Source of the DNA: Escherichia coli | GTDB lineage: Bacteria > Pseudomonadota > Gammaproteobacteria > Enterobacterales > Enterobacteriaceae | NCBI RefSeq assembly: GCF_011045215.1 | Contig: NZ_CP049201.1 | Direction: 5' to 3' (one strand) | DNA: 64,000 bases | Shown: positions 2,250-64,000 of the stretch, one piece after another | Layout of the letters: every line of letters begins with the position of its first letter | Position numbering within the stretch: the first letter of the stretch is position 1 | The notes under the pieces: model-generated | What the model was told of the DNA's origin: nothing | Seen by the model: only the letters and a program-made list of their open reading frames with translations | Database searches by the model: none | Position numbers and translations under genes: made by a program

Positions 2250-2501
2250 ATGCGTATTACCATAAAAAGATGGGGGAACAGTGCAGGTATGGTCATTCCC
2301 AATATCGTAATGAAAGAACTTAACTTACAGCCGGGGCAGAGCGTGGAAGCGCAGGTGAGCAACAACCAACTGATTCTGACACCCATCTCCAGGCGCTACT
2401 CGCTTGATGAACTGCTGGCACAGTGTGACATGAACGCCGCGGAACTTAGCGAGCAGGATGTCTGGGGTAAATCCACCCCTGCGGGTGACGAAATATGGTA
2501 A
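2250..2501 (+). CDS. chpS: Antitoxin ChpS (ChpBI) of the chpB toxin-antitoxin pair
   Basis: 83-aa product MRITIKRWGNSAGMVIP... (AbrB/MazE-like); 4-bp overlap with downstream toxin gene; SD GGAGG upstream. Confidence 0.85.
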   Translation: MRITIKRWGNSAGMVIPNIVMKELNLQPGQSVEAQVSNNQLILTPISRRYSLDELLAQCDMNAAELSEQDVWGKSTPAGDEIW

Positions 2502-2845: not shown

Positions 2846-2924
2846 GGTGTGTTTATTTATCGCGGGCATAAAAAAACCCTTACTAACCGAAGCCCGGCGT
2901 TCAGGGTTATTACGCCAGAAGAAC

Positions 2925-3455: not shown

Positions 3456-3764
3456 GTCTGTTTCCTTTAAAAATATGTGGCAAACAAGTGCCGAGTATTA
3501 TAGCCAACTCGCGCCGAATGTCTTCGCTTGTTTTCGTCTTCATTTTCCTTTTTCACCAGTTTTAAGACGGTATACAGAGCAGGAAAATCCATAACCGTAG
3601 CCGCATTTTTCATAGTGAGATGAAAGCGATTACAAACTTGTGATTAACGTTTTATTTACTTTTTTGAAGTGTGATGTAACGCAATCCGTTACATAACGAA
3701 TTGTCTATAGTTTTTTCGCGAACATCTTTTCACCAATAATAATTACTCCGACGAGGACAACCCT

Positions 3765-4721: not shown

Positions 4722-4730
4722 GGGTTGCTA

Positions 4731-4842
4731 TGCCTGATGCCGATTCGTAGGCCGGATAAGGCGCTCGCGCCGCATCCGGCGATGGTGCACTGAAGCCTGA
4801 TGCGACGCTTACCGCGTCTTATCATGCCTACTGGGAGCACGC
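4731..4842. repeat. REP/BIME repetitive extragenic palindrome cluster
   Basis: Copies of GCCTGATGCGACGC...CGTCTTATCAGGCCTAC / GCCGGATAAGGCG...CGCATCCGGC motifs between ytfQ and ytfR. Confidence 0.8.
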
Positions 4843-4860
4843 TTTACACCGGGGGAAACC

Positions 4861-6363
4861 ATGACGACCGACCAACACCAGGAGATCCTCCGCACCGAAG
4901 GATTAAGTAAATTTTTCCCCGGCGTCAAAGCGTTAGACAACGTTGATTTCAGCCTGCGCCGTGGCGAAATCATGGCGCTGCTCGGTGAAAACGGGGCGGG
5001 AAAATCAACGCTAATCAAAGCATTAACTGGTGTATACCATGCCGATCGCGGCACCATCTGGCTGGAAGGCCAGCCTATCTCACCGAAAAATACCGCCCAC
5101 GCGCAACAACTCGGCATTGGCACCGTCTATCAGGAAGTAAACCTGCTACCCAATATGTCGGTCGCTGATAATCTATTTATAGGCCGCGAACCCAAACGCT
5201 TCGGCCTTCTACGCCGCAAAGAGATGGAAAAGCGCGCCACCGAACTGATGGCATCTTACGGTTTCTCCCTCGACGTGCGCGAACCGCTCAACCGCTTTTC
5301 AGTCGCGATGCAGCAAATCGTCGCTATTTGCCGGGCTATCGATCTCTCTGCCAAAGTGCTGATCCTCGATGAACCCACCGCCAGTCTCGACACCCAGGAA
5401 GTGGAGTTACTGTTTGACCTGATGCGTCAGTTGCGCGATCGCGGCGTCAGCCTGATTTTTGTCACTCACTTTCTCGATCAGGTCTATCAGGTCAGCGATC
5501 GGATCACCGTCTTACGCAACGGCAGTTTCGTAGGCTGTCGGGAAACGTGCGAGCTACCGCAGCTCGAACTGGTAAAAATGATGCTGGGGCGCGAGCTGGA
5601 TACCCACGCGCTACAGCGTGCCGGGCGAACATTGTTGAGCGACAAACCCGTTGCCGCGTTCAAAAATTACGGCAAAAAAGGAACGATCGCACCGTTTGAT
5701 CTCGAAGTACGCCCCGGCGAGATCGTCGGTCTGGCTGGATTGCTGGGATCAGGACGTACCGAAACCGCCGAAGTGATCTTCGGTATCAAACCTGCTGACA
5801 GCGGCACGGCGTTGATCAAAGGCAAACCGCAAAACCTGCGATCGCCACATCAGGCTTCGGTACTGGGCATTGGCTTCTGCCCGGAAGACAGGAAAACCGA
5901 TGGCATCATCGCTGCCGCCTCGGTGCGGGAAAATATCATCCTCGCTCTCCAGGCCCAGCGCGGCTGGCTACGTCCCATTTCCCGCAAAGAGCAGCAAGAG
6001 ATTGCCGAACGCTTTATCCGCCAGCTTGGCATTCGCACACCTTCAACTGAACAACCGATTGAATTTCTCTCCGGCGGCAATCAGCAAAAAGTGTTGTTTT
6101 CACGTTGGCTACTGACCCGACCGCAATTTCTGATCCTCGATGAGCCAACCCGCGGCATTGATGTTGGTGCCCACGCCGAGATCATCCGCCTGATTGAAAC
6201 GCTATGCGCCGATGGTCTGGCGCTGCTGGTGATCTCCTCCGAACTGGAAGAACTGGTGGGCTATGCCGACCGGGTGATTATCATGCGCGATCGCAAACAG
6301 GTGGCGGAGATCCCGCTGGCAGAGCTTTCCGTTCCGGCGATCATGAACGCCATTGCGGCGTAA
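4861..6363 (+). CDS. ytfR: Sugar ABC transporter ATP-binding protein (tandem ABC domains)
   Basis: 500 aa; Walker A GENGAGKST, signature LSGGNQQK, Walker B LILDEPT; two ATPase domains. Confidence 0.88.
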   Translation: MTTDQHQEILRTEGLSKFFPGVKALDNVDFSLRRGEIMALLGENGAGKSTLIKALTGVYHADRGTIWLEGQPISPKNTAHAQQLGIGTVYQEVNLLPNMSVADNLFIGREPKRFGLLRRKEMEKRATELMASYGFSLDVREPLNRFSVAMQQIVAICRAIDLSAKVLILDEPTASLDTQEVELLFDLMRQLRDRGVSLIFVTHFLDQVYQVSDRITVLRNGSFVGCRETCELPQLELVKMMLGRELDTHALQRAGRTLLSDKPVAAFKNYGKKGTIAPFDLEVRPGEIVGLAGLLGSGRTETAEVIFGIKPADSGTALIKGKPQNLRSPHQASVLGIGFCPEDRKTDGIIAAASVRENIILALQAQRGWLRPISRKEQQEIAERFIRQLGIRTPSTEQPIEFLSGGNQQKVLFSRWLLTRPQFLILDEPTRGIDVGAHAEIIRLIETLCADGLALLVISSELEELVGYADRVIIMRDRKQVAEIPLAELSVPAIMNAIAA

Positions 6364-6373
6364 GGAGAACAGT

Positions 6374-7399
6374 GTGATGCCTCAATCTCTTCCGGACACC
6401 ACTACGCCAAAAAGGCGCTTTCGCTGGCCGACGGGGATGCCGCAGCTGGTAGCACTATTGCTGGTGCTGCTGGTCGATAGCCTGGTAGCCCCGCATTTCT
6501 GGCAGGTGGTGCTTCAGGATGGGCGTTTGTTCGGTAGCCCCATAGACATTCTTAACCGTGCAGCTCCCGTTGCGTTACTGGCGATTGGCATGACGCTGGT
6601 GATCGCCACCGGTGGGATTGATCTCTCCGTAGGGGCGGTGATGGCTATCGCCGGAGCCACAACGGCTGCGATGACGGTCGCGGGATTCAGCCTGCCGATT
6701 GTTTTGTTAAGCGCCCTGGGCACCGGCATCCTGGCGGGATTGTGGAACGGCATACTGGTAGCGATCCTCAAAATTCAGCCGTTTGTCGCCACTCTGATCC
6801 TGATGGTCGCCGGGCGCGGCGTGGCGCAACTGATCACCGCCGGGCAGATCGTCACGTTTAACTCGCCGGATCTCTCATGGTTCGGCAGTGGATCGCTGTT
6901 GTTCCTGCCAACGCCGGTCATTATCGCGGTGCTGACGCTTATCCTGTTCTGGCTGTTGACCCGCAAAACGGCGCTGGGGATGTTTATCGAAGCCGTTGGT
7001 ATCAACATTCGGGCGGCAAAAAATGCCGGGGTAAACACGCGGATCATCGTCATGCTTACCTACGTGTTGAGCGGGCTGTGTGCGGCGATTGCGGGCATTA
7101 TCGTGGCGGCGGATATTCGCGGTGCCGATGCCAATAACGCCGGATTATGGCTGGAGCTGGACGCCATTCTCGCGGTGGTGATTGGCGGTGGTTCGCTGAT
7201 GGGCGGACGTTTTAACCTACTGCTTTCGGTGGTGGGGGCGCTGATTATTCAGGGGATGAACACCGGAATTTTGCTTTCGGGCTTTCCGCCAGAGATGAAC
7301 CAGGTGGTGAAAGCGGTGGTGGTTCTTTGCGTGCTGATTGTCCAGTCGCAACGCTTTATCAGTCTGATTAAAGGAGTACGTAGCCGTGATAAAACGTAA
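6374..7399 (+). CDS. ytfT: Sugar ABC transporter permease
   Basis: Polytopic membrane protein; SD AGGAG before GTG/ATG at 6374/6377; ORF track start 6353 probably too early. Confidence 0.8.
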   Translation: MMPQSLPDTTTPKRRFRWPTGMPQLVALLLVLLVDSLVAPHFWQVVLQDGRLFGSPIDILNRAAPVALLAIGMTLVIATGGIDLSVGAVMAIAGATTAAMTVAGFSLPIVLLSALGTGILAGLWNGILVAILKIQPFVATLILMVAGRGVAQLITAGQIVTFNSPDLSWFGSGSLLFLPTPVIIAVLTLILFWLLTRKTALGMFIEAVGINIRAAKNAGVNTRIIVMLTYVLSGLCAAIAGIIVAADIRGADANNAGLWLELDAILAVVIGGGSLMGGRFNLLLSVVGALIIQGMNTGILLSGFPPEMNQVVKAVVVLCVLIVQSQRFISLIKGVRSRDKT

Positions 7400-45182: not shown

Positions 45183-45267
45183 GCCGAAGTGGCGAAATCG
45201 GTAGACGCAGTTGATTCAAAATCAACCGTAGAAATACGTGCCGGTTCGAGTCCGGCCTTCGGCACCA
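45183..45267 (+). tRNA. leuX: tRNA-Leu (anticodon CAA)
   Basis: 85-nt sequence GCCGAAGTGGCGAAATCGGTAGACGCAGTTGATTCAAAATCAACC...GGTTCGAGTCCGGCCTTCGGCACCA; anticodon loop TTCAAAA; long variable arm; CCA end. Confidence 0.93.
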
Positions 45268-45456: not shown

Positions 45457-46707
45457 ATGGCACTTACTGATATCAAAGTTAGGACTACCAAGCCCTCCGA
45501 CAAACCTTTCAAACTCACAGATGGGCAGGGTATGCACCTGCTGATCAACCCCAATGGTTCAAAATACTGGCGACTCCAATACCGTTTCGATGGCAAACAG
45601 AAAGTTTTAGCATTGGGTGTTTATCCAATGGTCTCTCTTGGTGAAGCTCGCAGGAAACGAGATGAGGCTAAAAAGTTGGTATCTGATGGTATCGACCCTT
45701 CCGAGAAGAAAAAGGCAGACAAGATCGAGCAGAGCGAAGCTCTTACTTTTGAATCTGTTGCCAGGGACTGGCATAAGGCTTGTAAAAGGAAATGGTCAGA
45801 TTCCCATAGCGAGAGAGTTCTAAAAAGCATGGAAGATGGTCTCTTTACTGCTCTTGGTAAAAGAAAAATATCCGAGCTTAATACCAGAGATCTTCTTGCC
45901 CCTATCAAGGCTGTTGAAGCTTCTGGGCGACTGGAAGTTGCTTCCCGCCTACAGCAAAGAACAACGGCAGTGATGCGATATGCTGTCCAGAACGGGCTGA
46001 TAGATTACAACCCTGCCCAGGAGATGGCAGGAGCTATTGCAGTAGCTAAAAGAGTCCACAGGCCAGCTTTGCCATTCGAACGATTCTCAGAACTTTTAGA
46101 ACGAATTGATAGTTTCAAGGGTAGAAAACTCACGAAGTTAGCCGTAAAGCTGACATTGCTCATTTTCATTCGTTCCAGTGAACTTAGGTTTGCTCGTTGG
46201 TCAGAGATAGATTTCGACAATGCCATGTGGACTATCCCTGGGGAACGTGAGCCATTGCCAGGGGTCAAACATTCTCATCGAGGCTCAAAAATGAAGACAC
46301 CACACCTCGTGCCGTTAAGTCGCCAGGCTATAGAACTCCTCAAAGCTATCAAAGAAATCAGCGGTGAATGTGAACTTGTATTCATTGGTGATCATGATTT
46401 TAGAAAGCCTATGAGTGAAAACACGGTAAACAAGGCTTTAAGGTCTATGGGCTACGACACTACGGTTGAAGTATGTGGACATGGTTTTCGTGCGATGGCA
46501 TGTAGTGCGTTGATCGAATCGGGAAAATGGTCAAGGGATGCTGTTGAACGGCAGATGAGCCACCAAGAGCGAAACTCCGTTCGTGCTGCCTACATTCATA
46601 AAGCAGAACACCTTGATGAAAGAAGGCTTATGTTGCAGTGGTGGGCTGATTACCTTAATGCCTTGAAAGATAGGTTTATCAGTCCCTTTGATTTTACAAC
46701 AAAGTAG
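45457..46707 (+). CDS. intB: P4-family tyrosine integrase (IntB-like) with N-terminal DUF4102-type domain
   Basis: 416 aa, MALTDIKVRTTKPSDKPFKLTDGQGMHLLINPNGSKYWRLQYRFDGKQK N-terminus typical of tRNA-associated island integrases; C-terminal HGFRAMA...R...Y catalytic region; lies 190 bp from the leuX 3' end. Confidence 0.9.
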   Translation: MALTDIKVRTTKPSDKPFKLTDGQGMHLLINPNGSKYWRLQYRFDGKQKVLALGVYPMVSLGEARRKRDEAKKLVSDGIDPSEKKKADKIEQSEALTFESVARDWHKACKRKWSDSHSERVLKSMEDGLFTALGKRKISELNTRDLLAPIKAVEASGRLEVASRLQQRTTAVMRYAVQNGLIDYNPAQEMAGAIAVAKRVHRPALPFERFSELLERIDSFKGRKLTKLAVKLTLLIFIRSSELRFARWSEIDFDNAMWTIPGEREPLPGVKHSHRGSKMKTPHLVPLSRQAIELLKAIKEISGECELVFIGDHDFRKPMSENTVNKALRSMGYDTTVEVCGHGFRAMACSALIESGKWSRDAVERQMSHQERNSVRAAYIHKAEHLDERRLMLQWWADYLNALKDRFISPFDFTTK

Positions 46708-46794
46708 CTTGATCAACGATTAACTATCCACTGGCATAGCCGTGTGATATGATTACAATGGCTATATTTTTAATTTAAATTTAATAGGTAAAAA

Positions 46795-47934
46795 ATGTCC
46801 ACAATTAACCCCGCAATTTTTTCTTTTTTCTCTGGTTCAGGATTTCTTGATCTTGGATTTGAAAAAAATGGTTATGAAGTGGTTTTCGTGAATGAATACC
46901 ATGCTCCGTTTATGGATGCATATAAACATTCGAGGAAAAAATTAAATATAGCACCACCTCGTTTTGGGTATGCAGAGTGCAGTATTGAAGATGTAGAACA
47001 TGAAAAAATTAAGTCTTCTATGCTTCAACTTAAAAATGAGGGGCGATTGACTGGATTTATTGGTGGTCCACCATGCCCGGATTTCTCTGTAGCGGGTAAA
47101 AATAAAGGTCGAGATGGTGAAAACGGTCGGCTTTCACAAAGCTATATTGATATCATTCTTGAAATGAAACCAGATTTCTTTCTTTTTGAGAATGTTAAAG
47201 GTCTATACCGTACCAGTAAACATAGGGAATTTTTTGACCATTTAAAAACTCAATTAGAATCGGTTGGTTATTGTTTGCATGAAAAACTAATAAATTCTAT
47301 TGAATATGGTGCTCCTCAAGATAGGCAACGAATCATATTGATTGGTTTCCTTGATGAAAAATATGCAAGCCAATTCAATTGGGGGCAAAGAGTCTACCCT
47401 GAAAGAACTGCATTTGAATATAAATGGCCGACGACAAACCAATTTTCAGAAAACACTTCTGTTATAAAACCAAAGGGTATCCCAGAAGAGTTAACAGTAG
47501 AGCATTGGTTCAAGAAAAACCAGGTTGATAATCATCCAAATGCAAAGCATGTATTCGCGGCAAGAGCAGGGCTTGCGAGGTTTTTGACTGTCGAAGAAGG
47601 GGATGATAGTAAAAAATCCTATAAAAGGTTACATAGATGGAGATTTTCACCAACTGCTGCTTACGGTAATAATGAGGTACATTTACATCCTTATAAACCA
47701 AGAAGAATTACTGTTGCCGAAGCATTAGCAATTCAGTCTTTACCAAAAGAATTTGAATTACCTGCTTATATGACTCTGTCTAATATGTTTAAAACTGTCG
47801 GTAACGGTGTACCCTACTTAGCAGCGGCCGGTATTGCCAAATCTATTATAGAGCATTTAGGAATCGAATATGAGAGTAACTGCGGCGAACTTAGCACAGG
47901 CGATTGCCAATCTACCAAGAAACACGCAGTTTAA
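46795..47934 (+). CDS. DNA (cytosine-5)-methyltransferase
   Basis: 379 aa with C5-MTase motifs: I FSGSGFLDLGFE (FxGxG), IV GGPPCPDFS (Pro-Cys), VI FLFENV, VIII QDRQR, X GNGVP near C-terminus; AT-rich. Confidence 0.85.
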   Translation: MSTINPAIFSFFSGSGFLDLGFEKNGYEVVFVNEYHAPFMDAYKHSRKKLNIAPPRFGYAECSIEDVEHEKIKSSMLQLKNEGRLTGFIGGPPCPDFSVAGKNKGRDGENGRLSQSYIDIILEMKPDFFLFENVKGLYRTSKHREFFDHLKTQLESVGYCLHEKLINSIEYGAPQDRQRIILIGFLDEKYASQFNWGQRVYPERTAFEYKWPTTNQFSENTSVIKPKGIPEELTVEHWFKKNQVDNHPNAKHVFAARAGLARFLTVEEGDDSKKSYKRLHRWRFSPTAAYGNNEVHLHPYKPRRITVAEALAIQSLPKEFELPAYMTLSNMFKTVGNGVPYLAAAGIAKSIIEHLGIEYESNCGELSTGDCQSTKKHAV

Positions 47935-48946
47935 TTATGTAAATGTGCGAAATTCGGGAAGAATCATTGTAACGAATGTTCAACTTCCCGAAGGCCCAAT
48001 AGAATTCAAAAGATTCGATCCAAAAAAGGGTGAGACACTGCATAGTTCTAAATCGGAAAGCATCTCCACACAAATGTTGTGGAGATTGGCTAATGCTTTA
48101 CAGGAAGATGTCCCTGTCAATTTGGATCGTATTTTTGGTGCAAGCTATAATACACGTGCTGTTCTCGAAAGCCTTTTGGCCCATACTCCTGAGTTTTATT
48201 GGTGTAAGCTTGATCGCCTTGAGGTAATGAACACTCAGAAAAATATTAAAAAAGGTCACAAGCACCTTATTTATAGACCAAATGACCCACATGAAAATGG
48301 TGTAGCAATAGAACATACTACTAATGTTATAATTTCTGAAATGAATTTAGATGTTGTCCATCAATCAGTTGATATAGAGACAATCTTACCTACTAAAGGA
48401 ATGACGATTGAGGAAAAAAGACGTCATGCACAAATTCAAATCTCATTAGTAAAAATAGGTCATTACTTAGGTTATCGGACATGGGTTGCAGCAAATGATC
48501 GTGGCCTCCAATATAATGGAAAATCTATAGCCCAAATGGATGGGGTCATAGATAATTTAAGAAATGAACAAGTGCTTCAATCATATGATAAAGCTATCAA
48601 AGAAGCTCGGCTTATAGATTGTATTTGGTTTCGAAATGGAAAATTAATGCCTGCAGTTATGGAGATTGAGCATAGCACTGGTATTAAAAGTGGTTTGGTA
48701 AGGATGAAACAATTTTATGATTATGCACCACAGTTAAAAAATATACGTTGGACCGTTGTGGCACCTGACGAATATAGAAATAAAGTTATAGAGTTTTCTA
48801 ATATGCCACAATTTAAAGAATTAGATACTCGATTCTTCCCCTATTCTGCTGTAGAGGAACTCTATTCATTATGTGCAAGAAGGAATCCTCAAGGAATTAC
48901 AGACGATTTCCTTGATGCATTCATGGAAAAGTGTGTGACACATTAA
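47870..48946 (+). CDS. Putative nuclease-like partner of the methyltransferase (candidate restriction endonuclease); function inferred
   Basis: 358-aa ORF; ATG with AGGA SD overlaps MTase 3' end by 65 nt (translational coupling); C-terminal D...E-x-E-x(6)-K-like stretch (LIDCIWF...VMEIEHSTGIK) compatible with a PD-(D/E)xK core. Confidence 0.45.
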   Translation: MRVTAANLAQAIANLPRNTQFNYVNVRNSGRIIVTNVQLPEGPIEFKRFDPKKGETLHSSKSESISTQMLWRLANALQEDVPVNLDRIFGASYNTRAVLESLLAHTPEFYWCKLDRLEVMNTQKNIKKGHKHLIYRPNDPHENGVAIEHTTNVIISEMNLDVVHQSVDIETILPTKGMTIEEKRRHAQIQISLVKIGHYLGYRTWVAANDRGLQYNGKSIAQMDGVIDNLRNEQVLQSYDKAIKEARLIDCIWFRNGKLMPAVMEIEHSTGIKSGLVRMKQFYDYAPQLKNIRWTVVAPDEYRNKVIEFSNMPQFKELDTRFFPYSAVEELYSLCARRNPQGITDDFLDAFMEKCVTH

Positions 48947-49083
48947 TCCTTCATAATCAGTTACCGGAGCAAATTACTTTTCTCCGGTTGGTTAACTGAA
49001 TATTAGTATTAAAATCTGATGGTGTTTATTTTATAAATATCAAATGTAATGGTATTTTCAATAATTATATCTAAGAGCGGTTT

Positions 49084-49893
49084 ATGAGAGTAATTAGCCC
49101 CTTTGAGGAATTGAAGAACTGGTTTAATCTTGATAACTATGAACCGATAAAATCGTTTACAATCAAGGAACTACATAGAGAGATTGTCTTTAGAGAAGCG
49201 ATTTTCGACAGTGTAAATTTTGGATGGGAAGATGATAATCAAAATTTAAGGTCTATCCTTGAAGGTAATCCTATTTTAAGCAGACAAGATAATAATCATG
49301 GTCATTTTGGCAAGGGCCAAAGACATGTTGCGCAGGTTAGCTTTGGTGATATAAAAAAATTAGAGAATAAGTTGATAATGTTTAGCATGGATTTTTTTGA
49401 AGAAAATGGTGATTTCAAAAAAGAGTTGAAAAAGAAACCAATAACAAAAACTATGAGAGACTTTTTTCTCAACAAAAATAGCAGCAAGATGTATGTATCA
49501 TTTGATTTGGGGTTATCTAGTGATGAGGAAATTATATCAGCCCTGCAAACTATGCTTCCAACTCTAAGGAAAGAATACGAGATTGACCCAGTAAAAACAG
49601 AAAAGATAGGGCTCGCAAAAATAAGAAAACTTGTCGATTACAACATTATTCCTATGATGGACTTACTAATTTGGTCAAAATTCAAAAAAGCAAAAATCTC
49701 AAATATGGTCTTGTCTCGTGTGTTGTATCCTGATTTCACTCACGAGATTAGAGGCGAAGATCACATTAAAGATACAGACAGGCCCATTGCTGAGAAGGCT
49801 TTAAATGGAGAGATAACTCGTAGTTTGGAGTACTTTCTTAGTAAAAACAGTCATCTCATCAACATACCGATTTCAGAACTCGGATCTCTCTAG
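49084..49893 (+). CDS. Hypothetical protein (269 aa), no recognisable motif
   Basis: Long AT-rich ORF, same strand as R-M-like pair. Confidence 0.55.
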   Translation: MRVISPFEELKNWFNLDNYEPIKSFTIKELHREIVFREAIFDSVNFGWEDDNQNLRSILEGNPILSRQDNNHGHFGKGQRHVAQVSFGDIKKLENKLIMFSMDFFEENGDFKKELKKKPITKTMRDFFLNKNSSKMYVSFDLGLSSDEEIISALQTMLPTLRKEYEIDPVKTEKIGLAKIRKLVDYNIIPMMDLLIWSKFKKAKISNMVLSRVLYPDFTHEIRGEDHIKDTDRPIAEKALNGEITRSLEYFLSKNSHLINIPISELGSL

Positions 49894-50058: not shown

Positions 50059-50265
50059 ATGAATACAACCAATCAAAGCTTAATTCGTTTACCAGAAGTC
50101 TTGAAACGAACTGGTTTCGGCAAGGCCTGGATCTATCGTCTGATCAGTGAAGGTCGGTTTCCGGCACCCGTTAAGATCGGAATTCGTGCCGTTGCTTTTG
50201 TCGAGAGTGAAGTTGACGAGTGGATTCTATCAGTTATCGAAACAAACAGAATTAAAGTTGCTTAA
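50059..50265 (+). CDS. alpA: AlpA-family transcriptional regulator / excisionase-like DNA-binding protein
   Basis: 68 aa; LIRLPEVLKRTGFGKAWIYRLISEGRFPAPVKIG...VAFVESEVDEWI matches the AlpA/MerR-like HTH of prophage CP4-57-type regulators. Confidence 0.85.
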   Translation: MNTTNQSLIRLPEVLKRTGFGKAWIYRLISEGRFPAPVKIGIRAVAFVESEVDEWILSVIETNRIKVA

Positions 50266-50893: not shown

Positions 50894-52156
50894 TTGAAAT
50901 ATAAAATAAAAAGATTGAAGAATAAAGATGGTATCAGAAGTTGCATTATTATTAATGAGAGCAACGGATTACCCTTGGTTTATTCTAACTTATATATGAG
51001 TGTTATTTCACGAACAAATAGCTATTCATTTTCAACAATGGAAGCAATAGCAAATGCTTTGCTTTTATTTGAAAGATATAATGCTTACATGAATGTGGAT
51101 GTTTTTGATATGGTAAATCCTGACATCGAAAAACTTGTCTCGAACAAAGGATATTTATTCGGGTTAATGAATGCCCTTTCTTACAGAAACGACTTAGAGA
51201 ATGTTACAAGCATTCTTAAAGAACAACATGTCTCTAAAAGAACCCTTTATTTCAAGATAATGACAATTGAAAATTACGTCAAATGGTTTTTTGATAACAT
51301 TGCTATCAATAATATTGATTCTTCTCGTTATGAAGCAATCAGTCGAGCATTTGATTTTATAAAGCCAAGAATAGAGAACGGAAAGAATTACAATATTGAA
51401 AGCGAAAGCAAATCATTGACAAATGAGCAAGTTACAACTTTGACTGATATGGTAAGTGTTAAATCTAAGATTAATCCATTTTCGGAGCATGTAAGGTTTC
51501 GAAATAATCTAATAATTAAAATTTTATTAGAGACAGGTATTAGGGGAGGGGAACTACTTAATATTAAGTTGGTTGATTTTGACTATGTCCACAAAAGTCT
51601 ATGCATAGTAAGAAGGCCAGATGATCAAAACGAACCACGATTAAGGCAACCATTGGTTAAAACTTTAGAAAGAAAAATACCATTGAGTATAGAATTGACT
51701 GAGTTAATACAGAATTATATTAGTGATTTCAGAGGTAAGCAGTGTCATGCAGGGGAGCATGACTATCTGCTTGTTACTCATAGCAGTAAAGGTCAATTAG
51801 GTCATGCATTAACTATTTCAGGTTATCAGAAAATTTTCGAACAAATTAGGAAAAATAGTAATGTTTTGAGCGATATTGTGGGGCATTCGCTAAGACATAC
51901 TTGGAATGTGAAATTCTCAGAAATGATGCTCATGAATTCGAACTCTCAGGAATATATTACTTATGAGAAAGTAAGAAATTATCTTATGGGGTGGAAAAAG
52001 AATAGTACAACCTCAGATATCTATAACCAAGCATTTATAGCACAAGAAAGCCGAAAAATAATGGCTGTTATTAATCCACTCAAAAACATAGTAGAGGACA
52101 AATCCAATGTTTCAAACTCTAAGAAAGCTACAAGAAAGTCAATATTCGGTTTTTGA
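50894..52156 (+). CDS. Tyrosine recombinase 1 of a three-recombinase operon
   Basis: 420-aa ORF (TTG at 50894; first ATG at 50996); conserved ETGIRGGELLNIKLVDF (box I Arg), HSLRHTW (HxxR) and ...SDIYNQ (Tyr) catalytic elements. Confidence 0.75.
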   Translation: MKYKIKRLKNKDGIRSCIIINESNGLPLVYSNLYMSVISRTNSYSFSTMEAIANALLLFERYNAYMNVDVFDMVNPDIEKLVSNKGYLFGLMNALSYRNDLENVTSILKEQHVSKRTLYFKIMTIENYVKWFFDNIAINNIDSSRYEAISRAFDFIKPRIENGKNYNIESESKSLTNEQVTTLTDMVSVKSKINPFSEHVRFRNNLIIKILLETGIRGGELLNIKLVDFDYVHKSLCIVRRPDDQNEPRLRQPLVKTLERKIPLSIELTELIQNYISDFRGKQCHAGEHDYLLVTHSSKGQLGHALTISGYQKIFEQIRKNSNVLSDIVGHSLRHTWNVKFSEMMLMNSNSQEYITYEKVRNYLMGWKKNSTTSDIYNQAFIAQESRKIMAVINPLKNIVEDKSNVSNSKKATRKSIFGF

Positions 52157-53432
52157 AACCAAGGATGGTAATTTCAAAGTGAACTTTTCTTATTCCAAGT
52201 GGAAGATAAGTGAAAGTATAACATTGAACATTGATTCTTTAAGAGTGGTCATCAGTGCATATATACCTATCAAAACCACTTTGGCATATTTCGCTATAAA
52301 TTATAGTGCCAGTTATACTAAGAAAATGTTTTATGCAGTAAAGCATTACATTAAGGCCTGTAATACGAATGATAGCTTGTTTTCTAAAGATTGCATAAAG
52401 TATTACTATAAAGTTGTGAGCTCATTAGATTACACACATGCAGAGACAGTCAAATATTTTTTTATGAAGATGAGTGGTCTTTACCCATCTTTGTTTTCGG
52501 CAGAAGCAATCATATTTTTAGAAAATATTAAAGTTAAAAAAACAAATGCAAACAAGTCTATAAAGACACATGATTATAAAAAAGGTCCCTTTAGTGACTC
52601 GCAATTAAAGGTAATTATAGATTCTGTAGCGATAGCTTATAAGGAAGAAAAGGTAAGTCTGTCAAACTATCTGCTAACCTTCCTTGTTGCATATTCCGGG
52701 CGGCGACCTATGCAAATATCTCAACTTGAAGCTGGTGATCTCTTTGCTTTTAATGGAGAGTACTTTCTCAATATCCCAAGAATTAAACAACGAAATGGAT
52801 ATAGAAAAGAGTTTAGAAAATTACAAATTCCAGAAGAGCTTTTTAGCCAATTGACATATCTCGTTGAAGCTGTGAATTCGCTGGTCAGTGACACATTAAA
52901 AATCGATTTAAGTGAAAAACAAAAGAGAAAACTACCAATTTTTATAAACACATATCCATTCAAAAAAGGATGTGTTGAGCTAAACATGATTGAAAGTGGT
53001 GGATTAAAACTTAACCCCTATGCCATAACACTAAAAATAAGGAACACTATAAATCGTTCAATAAATGAATATCAAGCCTATCTGGGGTGTATAAATTCGC
53101 GCAGATTTAGATATTCATTAGGCACTAAGGTTGCACAATTGGGTTATAGTCCTTCACTGATAGCAAATGTTTTGGACCATTCTTCAATCAATTCTGTTAT
53201 GAGTTATATAGAAAATACAGCGGAAAATGGCAAGAGAATTAATGAAGCTGTAAATGAACTAATGAAGCCACTGGCTAACAAATTTATTGAGGGAAAAGAG
53301 CTTCAGAAAGAGTTAGATTCTTTGAAGCATTTGATAGAAGAATACTGCGGTGGATATAAAACTAACTCTTTTGATAATACAGCAATATCGTTAGTAACTA
53401 ATTCTATCGACGATATGATCAATAGCATTTAA
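52107..53432 (+). CDS. Tyrosine recombinase 2 (divergent catalytic motifs)
   Basis: 441 aa; SD AGAGGA before ATG; AYSGRRPMQISQLEAGDL (box I), RRFRYSLG...LDHSSINSVMSYIE (box II-like with Tyr); overlaps upstream gene by 50 nt. Confidence 0.7.
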   Translation: MFQTLRKLQESQYSVFETKDGNFKVNFSYSKWKISESITLNIDSLRVVISAYIPIKTTLAYFAINYSASYTKKMFYAVKHYIKACNTNDSLFSKDCIKYYYKVVSSLDYTHAETVKYFFMKMSGLYPSLFSAEAIIFLENIKVKKTNANKSIKTHDYKKGPFSDSQLKVIIDSVAIAYKEEKVSLSNYLLTFLVAYSGRRPMQISQLEAGDLFAFNGEYFLNIPRIKQRNGYRKEFRKLQIPEELFSQLTYLVEAVNSLVSDTLKIDLSEKQKRKLPIFINTYPFKKGCVELNMIESGGLKLNPYAITLKIRNTINRSINEYQAYLGCINSRRFRYSLGTKVAQLGYSPSLIANVLDHSSINSVMSYIENTAENGKRINEAVNELMKPLANKFIEGKELQKELDSLKHLIEEYCGGYKTNSFDNTAISLVTNSIDDMINSI

Positions 53433-53447
53433 AAGAAGGATAAAGTG

Positions 53448-55052
53448 ATGAAAGAAATCCATGATAAAATGATTAATAACTTCATTATCGCTAATAAGGC
53501 CCATGCGAAAAATTTTGGAAATTTTGAGTGGGATAATTCAAGTTGGGGAGGCGGAATTACATTTTTTAGCGGAATCAAGGTTAGAATGGGGAACAAGAAT
53601 AAGAAATTAATGAATTATAACATTGCAGAGTTCGCAAAAGCATATGTATGGCATGAGTGCTTTCATGATTTATCTGTAGCTTTCAGAGTGCTGAGATTAT
53701 TTAGGATATTAGAAATTGCCATAGGTAAAACAAATAAAGAAGTTAAGATTTCAAGTATAGATCATAAAGTATTAGATGAAGTTATGACTATTGTTCAAGA
53801 AAATTTTGCAATATCCACTTCTTATAAAATATATTTAGATCTTAGGGTATTATGTTCTTTTATGTCTAAGAACGAAATGTTGCCAGAATCCATTACACGA
53901 TGGTCATATCCATTTAAGGCATATGATGCTTACACAAATAGCACAATGGATTCGATGGGAAATTTATCCAATCAGAAAAAACTTCCTGATGAAAAGGCTA
54001 TAGATTTTATTGGTAAAATATTTAGCTCTAATCCAGTTAATGAAAGGGATATATTTACATCTTCTATTTTTGCATTGCTCTTATGTGCTCCATCTCGAAT
54101 TAGTGAAATTATGCTTTTAGAAGAGGACTGTGAAGTTATAGTTGAAGATAGTAATGGCATATCAAGATATGGTTTGCGATTTCTTTCTCTGAAGGGCTTT
54201 GGATACAATACCAAATGGATTCCAGACTGTATGGTTTCTGTAGCTTCAAAGGCTATCATGCGATTGAAAAAACTTACAAGGAATGCAAGGGTTGTTTCTC
54301 GGTTAATAAAAGCAGGGGAAATTAATTTATACGAGTCATTAAACAAAAGTGCGTTTGATTGTTTAACAATTGAAGATCTCCACAAACTTGGCTTTGTTAT
54401 AAATCAATTAAATATCTCCCAAGAAAATCTAAAATTCTTGGCTAAGATAAAACATGGTACAGTCAGTGTAAAAGCATTTTGGATTTATATAGAGCGAAAG
54501 AATGTTAATTCTGAAAATATTAATGCTAATTTATGCTCCATAAATCATAATTTATTGGACTCTATCAAGGGTGCTGATATTTTTACAACAATTAAGGCAT
54601 CTTCAAAGTATTTTAGAGCGGATTTTCGCACCGATAATATGAATAACATATTTCATAGGAATATACATTTTAACTGTGATGGTTCTGTTTTAATTTTCCG
54701 CAGCCATCAAATTAGACATTTACTTAATACTATAGCTCAACGAAGCGTATTGTCAGAGATACAAATTGCCCAATGGTCTGGGAGAAGGAGTGTTAAGCAG
54801 AATTCAGTATATGATCATATGTCTCACAACGAGTTATCAGAACTATCAAGGAAACTATTGAACGGAAACACCTACGAAGAAACAAAAATTTCAGCATCTT
54901 CATTTAATGAACAATCGATTATTATGAATTTGATTAAAGATAAATTTGAAAAACTAGAATTAAAAATCCAAAATTCAGATCCAAGAAAAAGAAAATATAT
55001 TCTGGAAAAAATTAAAGATTTAAGATTGGAAATTGAATACATATTAATGTGA
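53448..55052 (+). CDS. Tyrosine recombinase 3
   Basis: About 534 aa (GTG-ATG at 53445/53448); CAPSRISEIMLLEEDC (box I), HQIRHLLNTIAQ (HxxRH), ...SVYDHMSHNE (Tyr). Confidence 0.7.
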   Translation: MKEIHDKMINNFIIANKAHAKNFGNFEWDNSSWGGGITFFSGIKVRMGNKNKKLMNYNIAEFAKAYVWHECFHDLSVAFRVLRLFRILEIAIGKTNKEVKISSIDHKVLDEVMTIVQENFAISTSYKIYLDLRVLCSFMSKNEMLPESITRWSYPFKAYDAYTNSTMDSMGNLSNQKKLPDEKAIDFIGKIFSSNPVNERDIFTSSIFALLLCAPSRISEIMLLEEDCEVIVEDSNGISRYGLRFLSLKGFGYNTKWIPDCMVSVASKAIMRLKKLTRNARVVSRLIKAGEINLYESLNKSAFDCLTIEDLHKLGFVINQLNISQENLKFLAKIKHGTVSVKAFWIYIERKNVNSENINANLCSINHNLLDSIKGADIFTTIKASSKYFRADFRTDNMNNIFHRNIHFNCDGSVLIFRSHQIRHLLNTIAQRSVLSEIQIAQWSGRRSVKQNSVYDHMSHNELSELSRKLLNGNTYEETKISASSFNEQSIIMNLIKDKFEKLELKIQNSDPRKRKYILEKIKDLRLEIEYILM

Positions 55053-58885: not shown

Positions 58886-60049
58886 TTAAGGATGATCTAT
58901 TGAAACAAACTTTTGACTAAACTCCAGCCATCTTGCATTATCAACATCCTTCACAAAAGCAATCAGACCTGCGACATGATTGTAAAAGCCAATTGGAGAG
59001 TCAAATTTTTCATGTCTTGCAACTTCTGAGAGACCAAATTTTTTTATTGAGTAAAGGTGGCGTTCAATACGTTTATAAGTTTGTTTAGATAATCGAGGGA
59101 CATTGCCATCAACAAGTAATCCTAAAACTATTTTTTTTGAACCAGGTCCAGCTACTCTTATTTTGCTTACGTTTTCTTTGAAATGGTGCTTACGAATGAT
59201 GCTGATAATGTTATTTTGTATTTTTCCAACCGAAACACCGTCGGGTAGAGTACCACCGCAGGATAATGTTATATCATCAGCATATCGAGTATAAGTGAAG
59301 CCATATTTATTAGCATATTCAGATAGAGAAATATCTAACTTTACAGTGGCTAAATTACTAAGCATTGGGCTACTCGGTGCCCCTTGAGGTAGCACTCCTA
59401 ACGGCCATGGTTCTGATATGTCCCAAAAAAGGCTCTTCTCTTTATTTTGTCCGTAAAGCTTATATTCCTTAGTTGAGTGCTTAGGAACAGAAATTAGAGA
59501 TTGTAAATGTTGTGGTAAACGTATAGTTGTGCATAGCCTTGATAGTTCAAATGCTATTAATGGCCGATATCCAGCATTTTTAAAAACCATATAAACATCA
59601 GATTCATTTATTGAATAAAAGAAATCGGAAATGTCGAATTGGAAGAGCCATTTAGCACCACAATGCTGTTCTGCACATTTTCTGATGCCACCATTAGGAT
59701 GGAAAGCAAAAGAAGTATTATGGGGAACTAACTTTTTTAATATTTCACTATTGATGAAATGCTGTACTTTAAATATCTCGCCAGTTACAGCATGAATATG
59801 GCGTCTTCCACCTGAACGTTTTTTTATAGCAAACATGCGATAATTTGCTGATTCACGGCGGCGTGATACAGTGGATCGTAGCAAGCGATAATCAACACCA
59901 GTAATTTTTGAAAGATGGCGTAATGTAAAAATTACAGGGAGATTATTTTTCTTCAGATTACTTGCATAATTTCTTAAGTTTAGAGCCTGTGTCTTCCCTA
60001 AGGATGACTCTGCATTTTGATAAAGTTGGTGTGCTGACCAGATTTCCAT
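58886..60049 (-). CDS. Retron-type reverse transcriptase
   Basis: 387 aa; RT motifs FQFDISDFF (A), LPQGAPSSP (B'), YTRYADDITLS (C); by-eye alignment to remembered retron Ec86 RT (QGAPSSP.LANL...YTRYADDLTLS, IDLEDFFPS); C-terminal VLGLLV in place of the retron VTG. Confidence 0.85.
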   Translation of the reverse strand: MEIWSAHQLYQNAESSLGKTQALNLRNYASNLKKNNLPVIFTLRHLSKITGVDYRLLRSTVSRRRESANYRMFAIKKRSGGRRHIHAVTGEIFKVQHFINSEILKKLVPHNTSFAFHPNGGIRKCAEQHCGAKWLFQFDISDFFYSINESDVYMVFKNAGYRPLIAFELSRLCTTIRLPQHLQSLISVPKHSTKEYKLYGQNKEKSLFWDISEPWPLGVLPQGAPSSPMLSNLATVKLDISLSEYANKYGFTYTRYADDITLSCGGTLPDGVSVGKIQNNIISIIRKHHFKENVSKIRVAGPGSKKIVLGLLVDGNVPRLSKQTYKRIERHLYSIKKFGLSEVARHEKFDSPIGFYNHVAGLIAFVKDVDNARWLEFSQKFVSIDHP

Positions 60050-60237
60050 TCACCTATCCTTTGAGCCCAGGGGGCCATCAGTGTCATACATTTTCCGAGT
60101 CCTCGATGGCCGTTAATGTATGACATTGAAGGGCGGCGTAGCCGCCTTTGCGTCAGATCTTTCCAGAGATGTTTCTCCAACATCCCCATCCGTTGTAACA
60201 AAAGCCACAACAGATTCTGTCAAACAAGCGGTGAACT
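60050..60237 (-). ncRNA. Candidate structured ncRNA (possible retron msr-msd-like template) in the PRTase-RT spacer
   Basis: 188-nt non-coding spacer directly upstream of the RT; 15-bp stem (60078-60092 pairs with 60115-60129, one G-U) with 22-nt loop; adjacent GGCGGC-GTA-GCCGCC hairpin (60132-60146). Confidence 0.4.
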
Positions 60238-61458
60238 TCACTCATCATTGTTTAACGGCTGAACGGAGTGCTGATCAGCACACCAAGACTCTGGAATGTA
60301 AAGACCAAAATCCCATACACTATCGTTTTTAACATGCCTAGAATTTACAAGTATGTCAAGTCCGAATTTAGATAATCGTTTTTGAGTTGTCAATAGTCCT
60401 AATGTCTCTGCATATATGAGTAGTTTTTCTACATACGAACAATCAACATTCAAACGTAAGGCAATGCTTTTGTTATCTCTGACACCTCTTTTTATAAGTT
60501 TTAGTAAATTTATAATTTCGGGAGATAAAGATGAATGGGGGGAAGTGTTATGCTTTGTTCCATTTTCTAACAAGGCAAGCAGCCATCCTGGAATTGCTCT
60601 ATCAGGCATTAGTCCTTGCCATTTTTTATTAGAAAACCATAGTATTCCAGGAAGGTTATTAGGGACGCTATGATAAAAAATTATATTAGATAAAACATTA
60701 CCATAGCCAAGACGAGCCCATGGAGGAATTTTGGTTTGATTTTTACAAAGATTGATTATTTCATTATACTGCTCACCCCACCGAGTTTCTAACCAATTTT
60801 CATTATATACGATGTTACTTATGAAATTGATTTTTTCAGATTTTCTATATTTTCTTACTCCATGGTCTGAGCCGCGAATAGTATTGATTATTCTATTTTC
60901 AGAACCTAGTGTTCTGGCGAAAGAAATTAAAGTTAATCTTACTAGTCCTAAACTCCACCAACTTAAAAAGGTAGGGTTATCGAGCATGGCATTAATAAAT
61001 CCGGATACTCTATCACCACTACCAATCGAATCATCAATAAGTAAAAAATCGTTGACTTTAGATTTTTTCAGATCATTGAGTGATGGATGATCTAAAAACA
61101 TAGTTTTATTAGACCGCACAAGGTTTGAAATAATTGAATATACTAAGTCTTCGCTACCTTGCGAATGACCTGGTCTATTAACAACATCACCATTAAGGTC
61201 CCATAATACTTGTTTGTCTGGATCTAATTTGCGAACTGAATAAAGGGCATAATTTTTATTTTTTGGTAAATCAGAAATGCTCTTTTGAAGCCATATGGTA
61301 AACTCATCTCTACTTACAAAAGTTAACTTGCTCAAGATGTTTTTTGCAATCGCTTTTTGGCTGCTATTAAATTGCATAAGCCATTGAGCTATTTCCTGAG
61401 AGGATTCAATTTTTTCTACTGAAAGTATTTTAAATTTAGGTTTGTCTCTTGTTTTCAT
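60238..61458 (-). CDS. Phosphoribosyltransferase-like protein (putative RT-associated effector)
   Basis: 406 aa; PRPP-binding-like motif KVNDFLLIDDSIGSGDR (hydrophobic strand, DD, small-Gly); encoded immediately upstream of and co-directional with the RT. Confidence 0.55.
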   Translation of the reverse strand: MKTRDKPKFKILSVEKIESSQEIAQWLMQFNSSQKAIAKNILSKLTFVSRDEFTIWLQKSISDLPKNKNYALYSVRKLDPDKQVLWDLNGDVVNRPGHSQGSEDLVYSIISNLVRSNKTMFLDHPSLNDLKKSKVNDFLLIDDSIGSGDRVSGFINAMLDNPTFLSWWSLGLVRLTLISFARTLGSENRIINTIRGSDHGVRKYRKSEKINFISNIVYNENWLETRWGEQYNEIINLCKNQTKIPPWARLGYGNVLSNIIFYHSVPNNLPGILWFSNKKWQGLMPDRAIPGWLLALLENGTKHNTSPHSSLSPEIINLLKLIKRGVRDNKSIALRLNVDCSYVEKLLIYAETLGLLTTQKRLSKFGLDILVNSRHVKNDSVWDFGLYIPESWCADQHSVQPLNNDE

Positions 61459-61693: not shown

Positions 61694-62296
61694 TTATTCA
61701 TATGATTTGTATTTCTTTTCATCTACTAAATTTATTATGGACGATGAGGTTTTATATATCAACTTTACATTGTGTAAAGATATATTGTGTTTGCTAATAA
61801 AATATAAAAGATCCAATAGCATCTGTTCTTGCCGTTCTTGTGGAAACTCTAATTTTACGATTGGAGTAAATTCAACAATAAAACCACTATTCAACAGTAG
61901 TTTTATGTAGCTAAATGAGTTTGGCGTAACTGTTTTGATTTTTATTATTTTATTAGTAATTAGATGCTTATGGTTTATAATAATGTGAGGGTTGAGCAGT
62001 GCCATATCATATGACATGAATGTTAAACCATGACTATCTATTATGTTCAAGTCGATACCAAGTTGTATAAACATATCGATTATTGCTTTGCTATGTATCC
62101 AGTTATAAAATAAAGGTGTCCTTCCATAGTTATCTAAATGATTTAGGTCGGCTCCTGCAGCTAAAAGAGATGTTGTAAGTAAATAGTCATTAGAATAAAA
62201 TAATGGTGTACGACCACAATTATCCTTTAAGTTTATTAAACCATTGTCTATGAATATATTAGATAAATTATTGTGCATTTTACCTCCTTTTATCAT
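61694..62296 (-). CDS. Ankyrin-repeat protein
   Basis: 200-aa ORF; two clear ankyrin repeats (GRTPLFYS...LLAAGADLNHLDNYGRTPLFY) plus degenerate third (DSHGLTFMS). Confidence 0.6.
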   Translation of the reverse strand: MIKGGKMHNNLSNIFIDNGLINLKDNCGRTPLFYSNDYLLTTSLLAAGADLNHLDNYGRTPLFYNWIHSKAIIDMFIQLGIDLNIIDSHGLTFMSYDMALLNPHIIINHKHLITNKIIKIKTVTPNSFSYIKLLLNSGFIVEFTPIVKLEFPQERQEQMLLDLLYFISKHNISLHNVKLIYKTSSSIINLVDEKKYKSYE

Positions 62297-62643: not shown

Positions 62644-63519
62644 TTATAAATGATCTCCAATGTGAGCAATAGCGATTTGTGCCGGTCTATCAGGAATTCT
62701 ATTAAAGAAGCCAAAGTATATTCTATTGTAGTAATAAGTTCCTTTTCGATTAGTATTGTCCATGTATTCAAGTTTATAATGGAATTCACAATTCACGTCT
62801 TTATAGATACAATCACCCACTTTAAAATCACGTTTTAATTCCCCTATGGCTCGTTTATTTTTGCCTCCACCTTCTGGTGTTACAAGATAAGGTAACGATG
62901 AATTCATAATTCTAATGTTATGTTGTGAGTCATTAGGTATAATTGTATAGTTATTAACAAAATAAAGAAATTCAGTGATGCTTTTCAAAAAATTTTCATA
63001 TCCACCTTCAATTTTCCTAATAAAATTAAAGGTTTGTGGTGGGTTATCCAAAAAAATGACATTCTTGAAAATGTTTTTAATATTGTCAGCATATTCATCA
63101 CAATCCGATGGGAATTCATCAAGGATTTTCTTAGAAAGATCAATTATTTCACTTTCACTAGAAACTGTATTATCCTTTTTTAAAGGTATGTCTGGAGATT
63201 GATAGGCACAGAGTTTTCTTTCGGCAAGTATCGATGGGGATGTATTGATGATATTTAGAAGTTCATTGCAGCCTATTTCATCCAATAAACTAATTTGGCC
63301 TATTTTATAATACTCATTAACAAGGCCACCGTAATCAGGGTTTGTTGAAAATAATTTAGTGACAAATTTTCCATCAAATTCATTGGAGCGAAGAAACTTT
63401 ATAAAATCTGAATCCACTCTCTCTACAAGTGCTTTAAGATCTTTAATCTGGTTAAAAATCTTAATTTGTTCTTCTTCAAGAGAAAAACTATCTATGAACA
63501 AGCAAACACCTGCTTTCAT
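62644..63519 (-). CDS. Hypothetical protein, partner of upstream ATPase (possible degenerate HNH-like nuclease)
   Basis: 291 aa; starts 9 nt after the ATPase gene stop; C-terminal C-x6-C-x2-H-x9-N-x10-N segment (DCIYKDVNCEFHYKLEYMDNTNRKGTYYYNRIY) loosely HNH-like. Confidence 0.5.
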   Translation of the reverse strand: MKAGVCLFIDSFSLEEEQIKIFNQIKDLKALVERVDSDFIKFLRSNEFDGKFVTKLFSTNPDYGGLVNEYYKIGQISLLDEIGCNELLNIINTSPSILAERKLCAYQSPDIPLKKDNTVSSESEIIDLSKKILDEFPSDCDEYADNIKNIFKNVIFLDNPPQTFNFIRKIEGGYENFLKSITEFLYFVNNYTIIPNDSQHNIRIMNSSLPYLVTPEGGGKNKRAIGELKRDFKVGDCIYKDVNCEFHYKLEYMDNTNRKGTYYYNRIYFGFFNRIPDRPAQIAIAHIGDHL

Positions 63520-63528
63520 GAAATCCCC

Positions 63529-64000
63529 TTAATTTTCAATATCAGGAGTATTAAATGATCCTGTCATAATGGTATACATATCAATTGATTGCTGGTCAAA
63601 GAATCCTTTCGGCCAACTAGAAAGTTTTCCATCTTTGCCAATAGATATCTTTTCTGCAGTAGATTCATTATTCTCATGTGAAATATAAAATAACGAAATT
63701 AGCTCAGGTGAAAAGTCAGGAGATGTTCTTGCTACGACACGGATTCCGTTGAGAAGGTGATCGCTATGAGTTTCTATGAATACCTGTACTCCCGCTTGAG
63801 CAGTGTAAGCTATTAATCTACCCATATAGCTTTGTCCTCTAGGGTGCAAATGGGCTTCCGGGTTTTCTAAAACTACTAATTCGCCCGGTTTTGCTAAAAG
63901 TAATGCTGAAACAATACTCAAAGCATAGCTATAACCAAAACCAATGTTTTTGGGTTTAGTTTGTTTTCCTGACTCAGCCTGTATTGTGTTATAAGCAATG
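63529..64000 (-). CDS. ABC/AAA15-type ATPase, C-terminal part (DUF3696-like); 5' end beyond window
   Basis: Frame open to window edge (ORF-track 'M' is TTG); ...GFGYSYALSIVSALLLAKPGELVVLENPEAHLHP (signature/Walker B/D-loop) and FIETHSDHLL (H-loop). Confidence 0.7.
   Translation of the reverse strand, partial: IAYNTIQAESGKQTKPKNIGFGYSYALSIVSALLLAKPGELVVLENPEAHLHPRGQSYMGRLIAYTAQAGVQVFIETHSDHLLNGIRVVARTSPDFSPELISLFYISHENNESTAEKISIGKDGKLSSWPKGFFDQQSIDMYTIMTGSFNTPDIEN

Follow-up and report, generated by a model that had tools for sequence, protein, structure and literature searches.

The restriction endonuclease R.NmeDI of Neisseria meningitidis 2120 is a protein of 351 amino acid residues that has been purified and characterized and that recognizes the sequence RCCGGY (Kwiatek and Piekarowicz, 2007, PMC2095814). 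Cleavage takes place in both strands to either side of this site, at 12/7 ... 7/12, and releases a 25-bp fragment; the enzyme acts as a tetramer that requires two sites (PMC2095814). Its gene follows that of a C5-methylase, nmeDIM (RCCGGB), in the same orientation, and its first nine codons overlap the methylase gene (PMC2095814). In a later review of the Type II enzymes, NmeDI was classed as a "symmetric Type IIS enzyme" (PMC4081073, 2014). Both the family and its founding enzyme, with the unusual mode of cleavage, have thus been on record since 2007, and Pfam, PADLOC and the NCBI pipeline all recognize the family.

The locus described here lies in a 64,000-nt stretch of Escherichia coli DNA (contig NZ_CP049201.1 of assembly GCF_011045215.1), hereafter the window. 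An earlier note on this DNA had proposed that a C5-cytosine methyltransferase (MTase) coupled to a nuclease-like gene forms a Type II restriction-modification (R-M) system, and had considered that the system might be modification-dependent or otherwise atypical. The first proposal is borne out by our analysis: the pair at positions 46795-48946 is very probably a functional two-gene Type II R-M module of the NmeDI family, working along the lines set out below. The window pair is an uncharacterized orthologue of a curated family, and identical proteins are already present in public E. coli genomes.

Organization of the Locus

The flagged region contains three open reading frames of 379, 358 and 269 aa, all on the + strand (Table 1). 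The overlap of 65 nt (47934-47870+1) between the methyltransferase gene (M) and the restriction gene (R), with a Shine-Dalgarno sequence before the latter, had been described correctly in the earlier note. As R starts within M behind this sequence, the simplest reading is that the two genes are co-transcribed and that R would be translated from the M message. No unusual RNA structure that could act as a coupling device was found over the start of R (z=+1.2). The sigma-70-like site upstream of M is suggested as the operon promoter; it is weak, and such sites were rarer in the region than in shuffled sequences in the consensus scan. The terminator scan detected no canonical terminator 3' of R; no T tail follows the hairpin at 48963-48988. 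No gene for a controller protein accompanies the pair.

Table 1. Features of the R-M locus and its surroundings (positions in the window).
Feature	Position	Strand	Basis
tRNA-Leu(CAA), leuX, end of core	45183-45267		
P4-type integrase	45457-46707		
Candidate operon promoter, sigma-70-like CTGGCA-17-TACAAT	46731..46759	+	Consensus scan; 36 nt 5' of MTase start
C5-cytosine DNA methyltransferase, M subunit, 379 aa	46795..47934	+	PF00145, PADLOC MTase_II, motifs
Shine-Dalgarno-like AGGA, within MTase coding sequence	47859..47862	+	Direct sequence reading; 7 nt 5' of REase ATG
NmeDI-family Type II restriction endonuclease (REase), R subunit, 358 aa	47870..48946	+	PADLOC REase_II PDLC03534
REase N-terminal domain, aa 1-156, putative sequence recognition, winged-helix-like core	47870..48337	+	
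REase inter-domain linker, low confidence, aa 157-174	48338..48391	+	pLDDT, alignment variability
REase C-terminal PD-(D/E)xK cleavage domain, aa 175-358	48392..48943	+	
Codons of proposed catalytic residues D250; E265; E267	48617-48619; 48662-48664; 48668-48670		
DUF6387 ORF, 269 aa	49084..49893	+	DUF6387 profile E=2e-74

The Methyltransferase

In profile searches, the MTase matched PF00145 over residues 8-352 (E=5e-54) and the NCBIfam model TIGR00675 (E=6e-48), and its best PADLOC match was the Type II model MTase_II PDLC03355 (E=1e-163). The full set of C5-MTase (PF00145) motifs can be read in its translation, as the earlier note had maintained: I (F12-G14-G16), IV (P93-C94, with Cys94 as the catalytic residue), VI (E132-N133-V134), VIII (Q175-R177-R179), IX (R303..Q314, within R303-P317) and X (G336-N337-V339-P340), with a target-recognition domain (TRD) between VIII and IX. 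Motif I begins at residue 9, and the protein has no N-terminal regulatory extension and therefore no built-in HTH regulator. The best-conserved stretch of the MTase is the core of the TRD (aa 261-300), which is 72-92% identical to that of the window protein among 71 family MTases; the target-recognition region is thus not where these enzymes vary. This conservation argues that the NmeDI-family MTases may share a single specificity.

The MTase also matches the DruM models of PADLOC (PDLC00030, E=5e-142), which would speak for a methylation-linked defense other than R-M, with the MTase as a DruM-like component of Druantia or with the 358-aa protein as a Type IV, modification-dependent nuclease. 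Such a role is highly improbable. The Type II model is the better match, and no other Druantia gene, such as that of the large DruE helicase, is found nearby, the neighbors being the integrase and the DUF6387 gene; the DruM match was accordingly set aside as generic C5-MTase homology. Evidence from the nuclease and from the family, given below, bears on the Type IV variant.

The Restriction Endonuclease

The 358-aa protein matches the PADLOC Type II REase model PDLC03534 with E=2e-124, its residues 2-356 aligning with positions 5-350 of a profile whose 351 positions equal the length of R.NmeDI. The profile search that had been put forward as a check in the earlier note has thus placed the protein in a nuclease family, not in a non-nuclease one. 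In PADLOC it matches REase_II only, and the Type IV models are unmatched. A search of 5.8 billion proteins returned 1,644 relatives, the top one being P0001, a protein of 100% identity that represents 174 sequences under the name "restriction endonuclease [Escherichia coli]". PF27126, which gene-context look-ups give as the Pfam family "NmeDI_C", was found on P0001 and on every relative among the matches listed, and an E. coli allele of 75% aa (71% nt) identity carries the PGAP name "type II restriction enzyme NmeDI-related protein". By these profiles and curated names, the 358-aa protein is an NmeDI-family Type II REase with homology over its whole length.

R.NmeDI itself was absent among the 120 matches listed in two homologue searches, one with the window protein and one with an acidobacterial member of the family; the latter query was chosen on the basis that a Solibacter protein is the nearest relative of R.NmeDI (PMC2095814). 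Searches of Pfam, NCBIfam and the PDB sequences gave no match for the 358-aa protein, in the case of Pfam because the release used predates PF27126. To deduce novelty from the empty Pfam and NCBIfam results would be wrong, since PADLOC and PF27126 place the protein.

Profile searches revealed no MTase domain in the REase. A Type IIB (BcgI-like) assignment, which would call for nuclease and MTase joined in a single protein or complex and for a bipartite site, was discarded since the pair has a separate C5-MTase and a REase devoid of an MTase domain, the same distinction from Type IIB that has been drawn for NmeDI (PMC2095814).

Predicted Structure and Catalytic Residues

In the AlphaFold model of the 358-aa protein, the core of the N-terminal domain is winged-helix-like, and the C-terminal domain is of the PD-(D/E)xK type, closest to the cleavage domains of BspD6I and FokI. 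Between the two domains, pLDDT values fall below 50 at aa 157-164 and 172-174, and in an alignment of 38 homologues the linker is the most variable, indel-bearing part. The alpha/beta core of the C-terminal domain is restriction-endonuclease-like, and its central beta-hairpin bears acidic residues, D250 lying just before strand 251-255, and E265 and E267 at the end of strand 259-266, a placement that is canonical for the residues of PD...(D/E)xK. These three residues, which are followed by H268-S-T270-G271, are invariant in the 38 homologues, and every invariant residue of the family is retained in the window REase.

D250...E265-x-E267 is proposed to be the catalytic motif, a variant of PD-(D/E)xK with Glu in place of Lys. 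The tentative PD-(D/E)xK segment of the earlier note is real, sits on the hairpin of a REase-like fold, and has a variant form. A Glu-for-Lys variant of the PD...(D/E)xK motif occurs in BamHI. The predicted Type IIS-like architecture, with a recognition domain, a linker and a FokI/BspD6I-like cleavage domain, is compatible with double-sided cutting; the structure prediction would thereby support a two-domain, Type IIS-like explanation of how NmeDI cuts on both sides, which had previously been proposed from biochemistry only.

Pairing Across the Family and Selection

To survey the family, one genome per species (GTDB) was scanned; 119 relatives were found and 80 loci were kept, two of which start at a contig edge. 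The hosts comprise Proteobacteria, Bacteroidota, Bacillota, Elusimicrobia, Verrucomicrobia, Acidobacteria, Chloroflexi, a CPR bacterium and a Methanocorpusculum MAG. In all of the 78 loci with upstream DNA, a C5-MTase gene directly precedes R on the same strand, its product being 52-76% identical to the window MTase; two of these loci (L042 and L076) look disrupted. At the junction, M and R are at most 4 nt apart and overlap by as much as 107 nt; the modes are 23, 4 and 41 nt, and the overlap of the window pair also occurs in its closest relatives. Many loci have purine-rich boxes at the position equivalent to AGGA. The identities of M and R to their window counterparts drop in parallel, which indicates that the two genes are co-inherited. 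The MTase is thus paired with R throughout the family, not an orphan among conserved unrelated neighbors, the arrangement that the earlier note had named as arguing against its reading. If the nuclease were a Type IV, modification-dependent enzyme, strict coupling to an MTase that generates its substrate would not be expected; in this family the coupling is universal and holds across phyla. Together with the PADLOC results, this led to the rejection of that assignment. Nor is the locus atypical in any novel respect: by analogy, its sole atypical feature would be one already described for NmeDI, in which a symmetric, Type IIS-like enzyme cleaves beyond its recognition sequence.

The genes that lie downstream of the pair are mixed (Vsr in 5 of 72 loci, GmrSD in 4 and DUF6387 in 1). 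Vsr was consequently rejected as a conserved partner, and no Vsr gene was seen among the scanned ORFs of the window's island.

Both genes are under purifying selection. Relative to strain IAI1, dN/dS is 0.04 for R and 0.05 for M, and comparison with the 71%-nt alleles gave a pN of 0.17, far below a saturated pS of ~0.8; none of the M and R genes compared contains an internal stop. These data bear on a different interpretation of the pair, in which the nuclease is inactive or altered in specificity and the MTase is in effect an orphan epigenetic enzyme, like VchM of Vibrio cholerae (RCCGGY 5mC). Regulatory orphan methylases of RCCGGY do exist (PMC4654547), and the catalytic motif of the window REase lacks the canonical Lys. 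On the other hand, the selection acting on both genes, as strong on R as on M, speaks against a nuclease in decay next to a methylase that stands alone. The R ORF is moreover intact, of full family length and complete in its invariant residues, M and R are linked in every locus with upstream DNA, and the allele is undisrupted in the E. coli genomes that carry it (see below). The orphan interpretation is thus improbable, and an active NmeDI-family R-M pair remains the preferred reading.

The Carrier Island at leuX

The flank of the island belongs to the E. coli core (lptF, lptG, yjgR, ahr; best identity 99.1%), and the GC content changes from 51-55% in this adjacent core to 31-41% from leuX to the end of the window. 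The island encodes, in order, the P4-type integrase, the R-M pair, the DUF6387 protein, AlpA, three tandem recombinase-like proteins, a MobA-type relaxase, a type III-A retron (RT + PRTase) and Nsn-like proteins. The islands of E. coli MS115-1 and EcPF5 lack the R-M pair, and their integrase gene is directly followed by that for DUF6387. Homology to these islands ends at ~46660, ~50 nt before the integrase stop, and resumes at ~49080, at the start of the DUF6387 gene. Because it breaks on either side of the pair, the latter can be delimited as a segment of ~2.4 kb and is, judging from these alignments, low-GC cargo between the integrase and the DUF6387 gene of a mobilizable leuX island. The integrase-DUF6387 slot of this island family thus represents a cargo position within a multi-system defense island. 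The RCCGGY sites, 61 in the 45.3 kb of core and 4 in the 18.7 kb of island, were considered as a sign of avoidance and are uninformative, as the counts track GC content.

The third ORF had been noted as a 269-aa unknown on the same strand; it does exist, is now identified as a DUF6387 gene, and proves to be unlinked to the pair. It adjoins an NmeDI-like pair in only one other locus of the family, and there within the same island, in a genome labeled Kosakonia. With this single co-occurrence and the existence of integrase-DUF6387 islands devoid of the pair, a role as third component was rejected. Furthermore, the neighbors of the family are mixed, and in ICEKp258.2 of Klebsiella, an island of the EARL type (Enterobacterales-associated ROD21-like), a DUF6387 protein adjoins an AlpA regulator (PMC10763509). 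By this comparison of gene neighborhoods, the 269-aa gene is part of the island backbone and not an R-M component.

The setting of the pair also raises the question of whom it serves. Type II R-M systems are known to behave as addiction modules (Kobayashi and colleagues), and the pair might act selfishly, in post-segregational killing that stabilizes the leuX island, with phage defense as a secondary effect. Consistent with this, it adjoins the integrase of an island that appears excisable and mobilizable (integrase, AlpA, relaxase), it is gained or lost as cargo between otherwise similar islands, and the 71%-nt allele likewise lies beside leuX, where its island has decayed. A primarily selfish role is nevertheless somewhat doubtful, since the island also holds dedicated anti-phage systems, namely the type III-A retron and the Nsn-like genes, and since in other phyla the pair adjoins GmrSD and other defense genes, as is typical of defense islands. 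Addiction and defense are both compatible with the data and are not mutually exclusive.

Distribution in E. coli

An NmeDI-like pair is present in 42 of 5,426 complete E. coli genomes (~0.8%), as the window allele in 12 and as the ~71%-nt allele in 30. The window allele is 98.7-99.8% identical in its 12 genomes and undisrupted; the island with this allele occurs in IAI1, in six ETEC genomes and in five others. In strain VCSW7, the decayed island beside leuX that carries the ~71%-nt allele places it next to a phosphorothioate-sensing nuclease. Carrier genomes, including ETEC lineages and IAI1, are predicted to be methylated at one further 5mC motif, probably RCCGGY, and to present a barrier to transformation and conjugation. 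Weak m5C-type signals at RCCGGY have been reported in the methylomes of E. coli MRE600 (PMC4825418) and SF-166 (PMC5381267); the 45 genomes matching the pair include neither strain, and these signals are therefore unassignable to it. No mention of RCCGGY was found in the ETEC literature. As a practical outcome, the RefSeq "hypothetical protein" WP_015953250.1 gains a name.

Proposed Mode of Action

By analogy with NmeDI, we infer that the window pair would resemble it in recognition sequence, cleavage geometry, oligomeric state and activity in vivo. The MTase would methylate cytosine at C5 within a short palindromic site, most likely RCCGGY/RCCGGB like M.NmeDI, and thereby protect the host genome. 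On incoming DNA, the N-terminal domain of the REase would bind the unmethylated site, and the C-terminal domain, held by a flexible linker and non-specific in its cleavage, would use D250, E265 and E267 to cut at a fixed distance, first on one side and then on the other, as R.NmeDI does. Cuts are expected on both sides because the recognition site is symmetric. Also as in R.NmeDI, the enzyme may function as a tetramer in need of two sites. The position of the R start inside M, behind its Shine-Dalgarno sequence, would favor the methylase being made first.

Comparison with Known Systems

The carrier of the locus has a backbone with a tyrosine integrase at a tRNA site, a DUF6387 gene beside that of AlpA, and a MobA-type relaxase, and resembles EARL islands such as ICEKp258.2, in which DUF6387 likewise adjoins AlpA (PMC10763509). 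It differs from them by integration at tRNA-Leu (leuX) rather than tRNA-Asn, and the likeness concerns the carrier, not the R-M pair.

The pair itself is most like NmeDI. The two REases are of similar size (358 versus 351 aa) and are matched end to end by the profile, the C5-MTase gene directly precedes that of the REase in the same orientation and contains the start of R within its 3' end, a controller protein is lacking, and the nuclease has no MTase domain. The predicted two-domain, Type IIS-like build also agrees with the "symmetric Type IIS" class (PMC4081073). The differences lie in genomic location, an E. coli leuX island as opposed to the Neisseria pheS-pheT region, in the extent of the overlap, 65 nt as opposed to nine codons, and in the Vsr gene of the Neisseria locus, which is accessory rather than defining and has no counterpart attached to the window pair.

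FokI and BspD6I share with the modeled window REase a separate PD-(D/E)xK cleavage domain, but they have no detectable sequence similarity to it and are larger (~580 versus 358 aa). They further differ in their methylation partners, two MTases or a fused N6-adenine MTase rather than one C5-MTase, and in their catalytic motif, D...DxK versus the proposed D...ExE, and a palindromic site, hence cutting on both sides, is expected for the window enzyme. Finally, the orthodox RCCGGY enzymes Cfr10I, Bse634I and BsrFI, as well as NgoMIV, show no sequence homology to the window REase, in line with what has been reported for NmeDI and the orthodox RCCGGY enzymes (PMC2095814). Unlike enzymes of the NmeDI type, they cut inside their site and have a single-domain fold with a rearranged active site.

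Sequence Features of the R-M Genes

Within the genes of the NmeDI-family restriction-modification (R-M) pair, the only RCCGGY site is a GCCGGT at positions 47827-47832, in the 3' end of the methyltransferase gene, and the start codon of the restriction endonuclease (REase) gene lies 43 nt downstream of it. If the pair does recognize RCCGGY, the recognition site of R.NmeDI, its own M-R junction bears a target, and to ascribe a regulatory role to this site would be pure speculation. An inverted repeat (ACCGGAG...CTCCGGT, 7 bp with a 12-nt loop, 48963-48988), each arm of which contains CCGG, is found 17 nt past the REase stop codon; it has no T-rich tail, and the terminator scan made no call there.

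NmeDI-Like Pairs in Other Genomes

Escherichia coli VCSW7 (locus L087, 5194-10015) harbors a second NmeDI-like allele (71% at the nucleotide level), located in a decayed island and pointing towards the tRNA, with a 'phosphorothioated DNA-binding restriction endonuclease' gene and a transposase pseudogene as neighbors. Since this allele likewise adjoins leuX, that tRNA gene is suggested to be a recurrent landing site for cargo such as NmeDI-like pairs. In a record titled Kosakonia cowanii 282A-S69 (L007), a 5.5-kb stretch (1216-6725) holding the tRNA, integrase, R-M, DUF6387 and AlpA genes is 95% identical overall to the window, and its R-M proteins are 99.7% identical to those of the window. 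Either the island has moved between genera in recent times, or the assembly is mislabelled. In distant hosts, GmrSD-type (Type IV) nucleases adjoin the NmeDI-like pair, namely in Bacillus cereus (L002), where a MutH-family gene lies immediately downstream, and in Roseobacter (L003/L004), where an AAA_15/DUF3696 ATPase is another neighbor; these surroundings are typical defense-island neighborhoods.

Island Cargo and Backbone

Features of the island in the window
Feature	Coordinates	Strand	Basis or remark
DUF6387 gene	49084-49893		adjoins AlpA-family regulator
AlpA-family regulator	50059-50265		adjoins DUF6387 gene
Three tandem ORFs, slight overlaps (420, 441, 535 aa)	50894-55052	+	ORF layout, Pfam
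Type III-A retron module (reverse transcriptase, PRTase-CE/wHTH protein)	58886-61458	-	PADLOC
Ankyrin-repeat ORF	61694-62296		
Nsn-like genes	62644-63921	-	NsnC-like, E=1e-92; C-terminal part of an NsnB-like AAA ATPase, E=2e-46

In the retron module, PADLOC identified the reverse transcriptase as RT_III-A (E=4e-159) and the adjoining protein as PRTase_III-A (E=2e-93). The Nsn-like stretch, which extends towards the window end, is a candidate for one more defense system. As ORF 63529-63921 covers only the C-terminal third of the NsnB profile (positions 227-343 of 345), the NsnB-like gene may be split or mis-started.

The first two of the tandem ORFs match the phage-integrase catalytic domain PF00589, and the third has no Pfam match. 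Their layout is reminiscent of a 'recombinase in trio' element and is kept in the islands of E. coli IAI1, MS115-1 and EcPF5. Two more patches of low GC content (31-37% against a background of approximately 52%) occur in the core portion of the window, at 29001-31000 and 33001-34000; they are likely other horizontally acquired segments.

The DUF6387 and AlpA-family neighbors belong to the conserved backbone of the island. A DUF6387-AlpA-family regulator gene pair is also listed for the Klebsiella EARL-type island ICEKp258.2 (PMC10763509).
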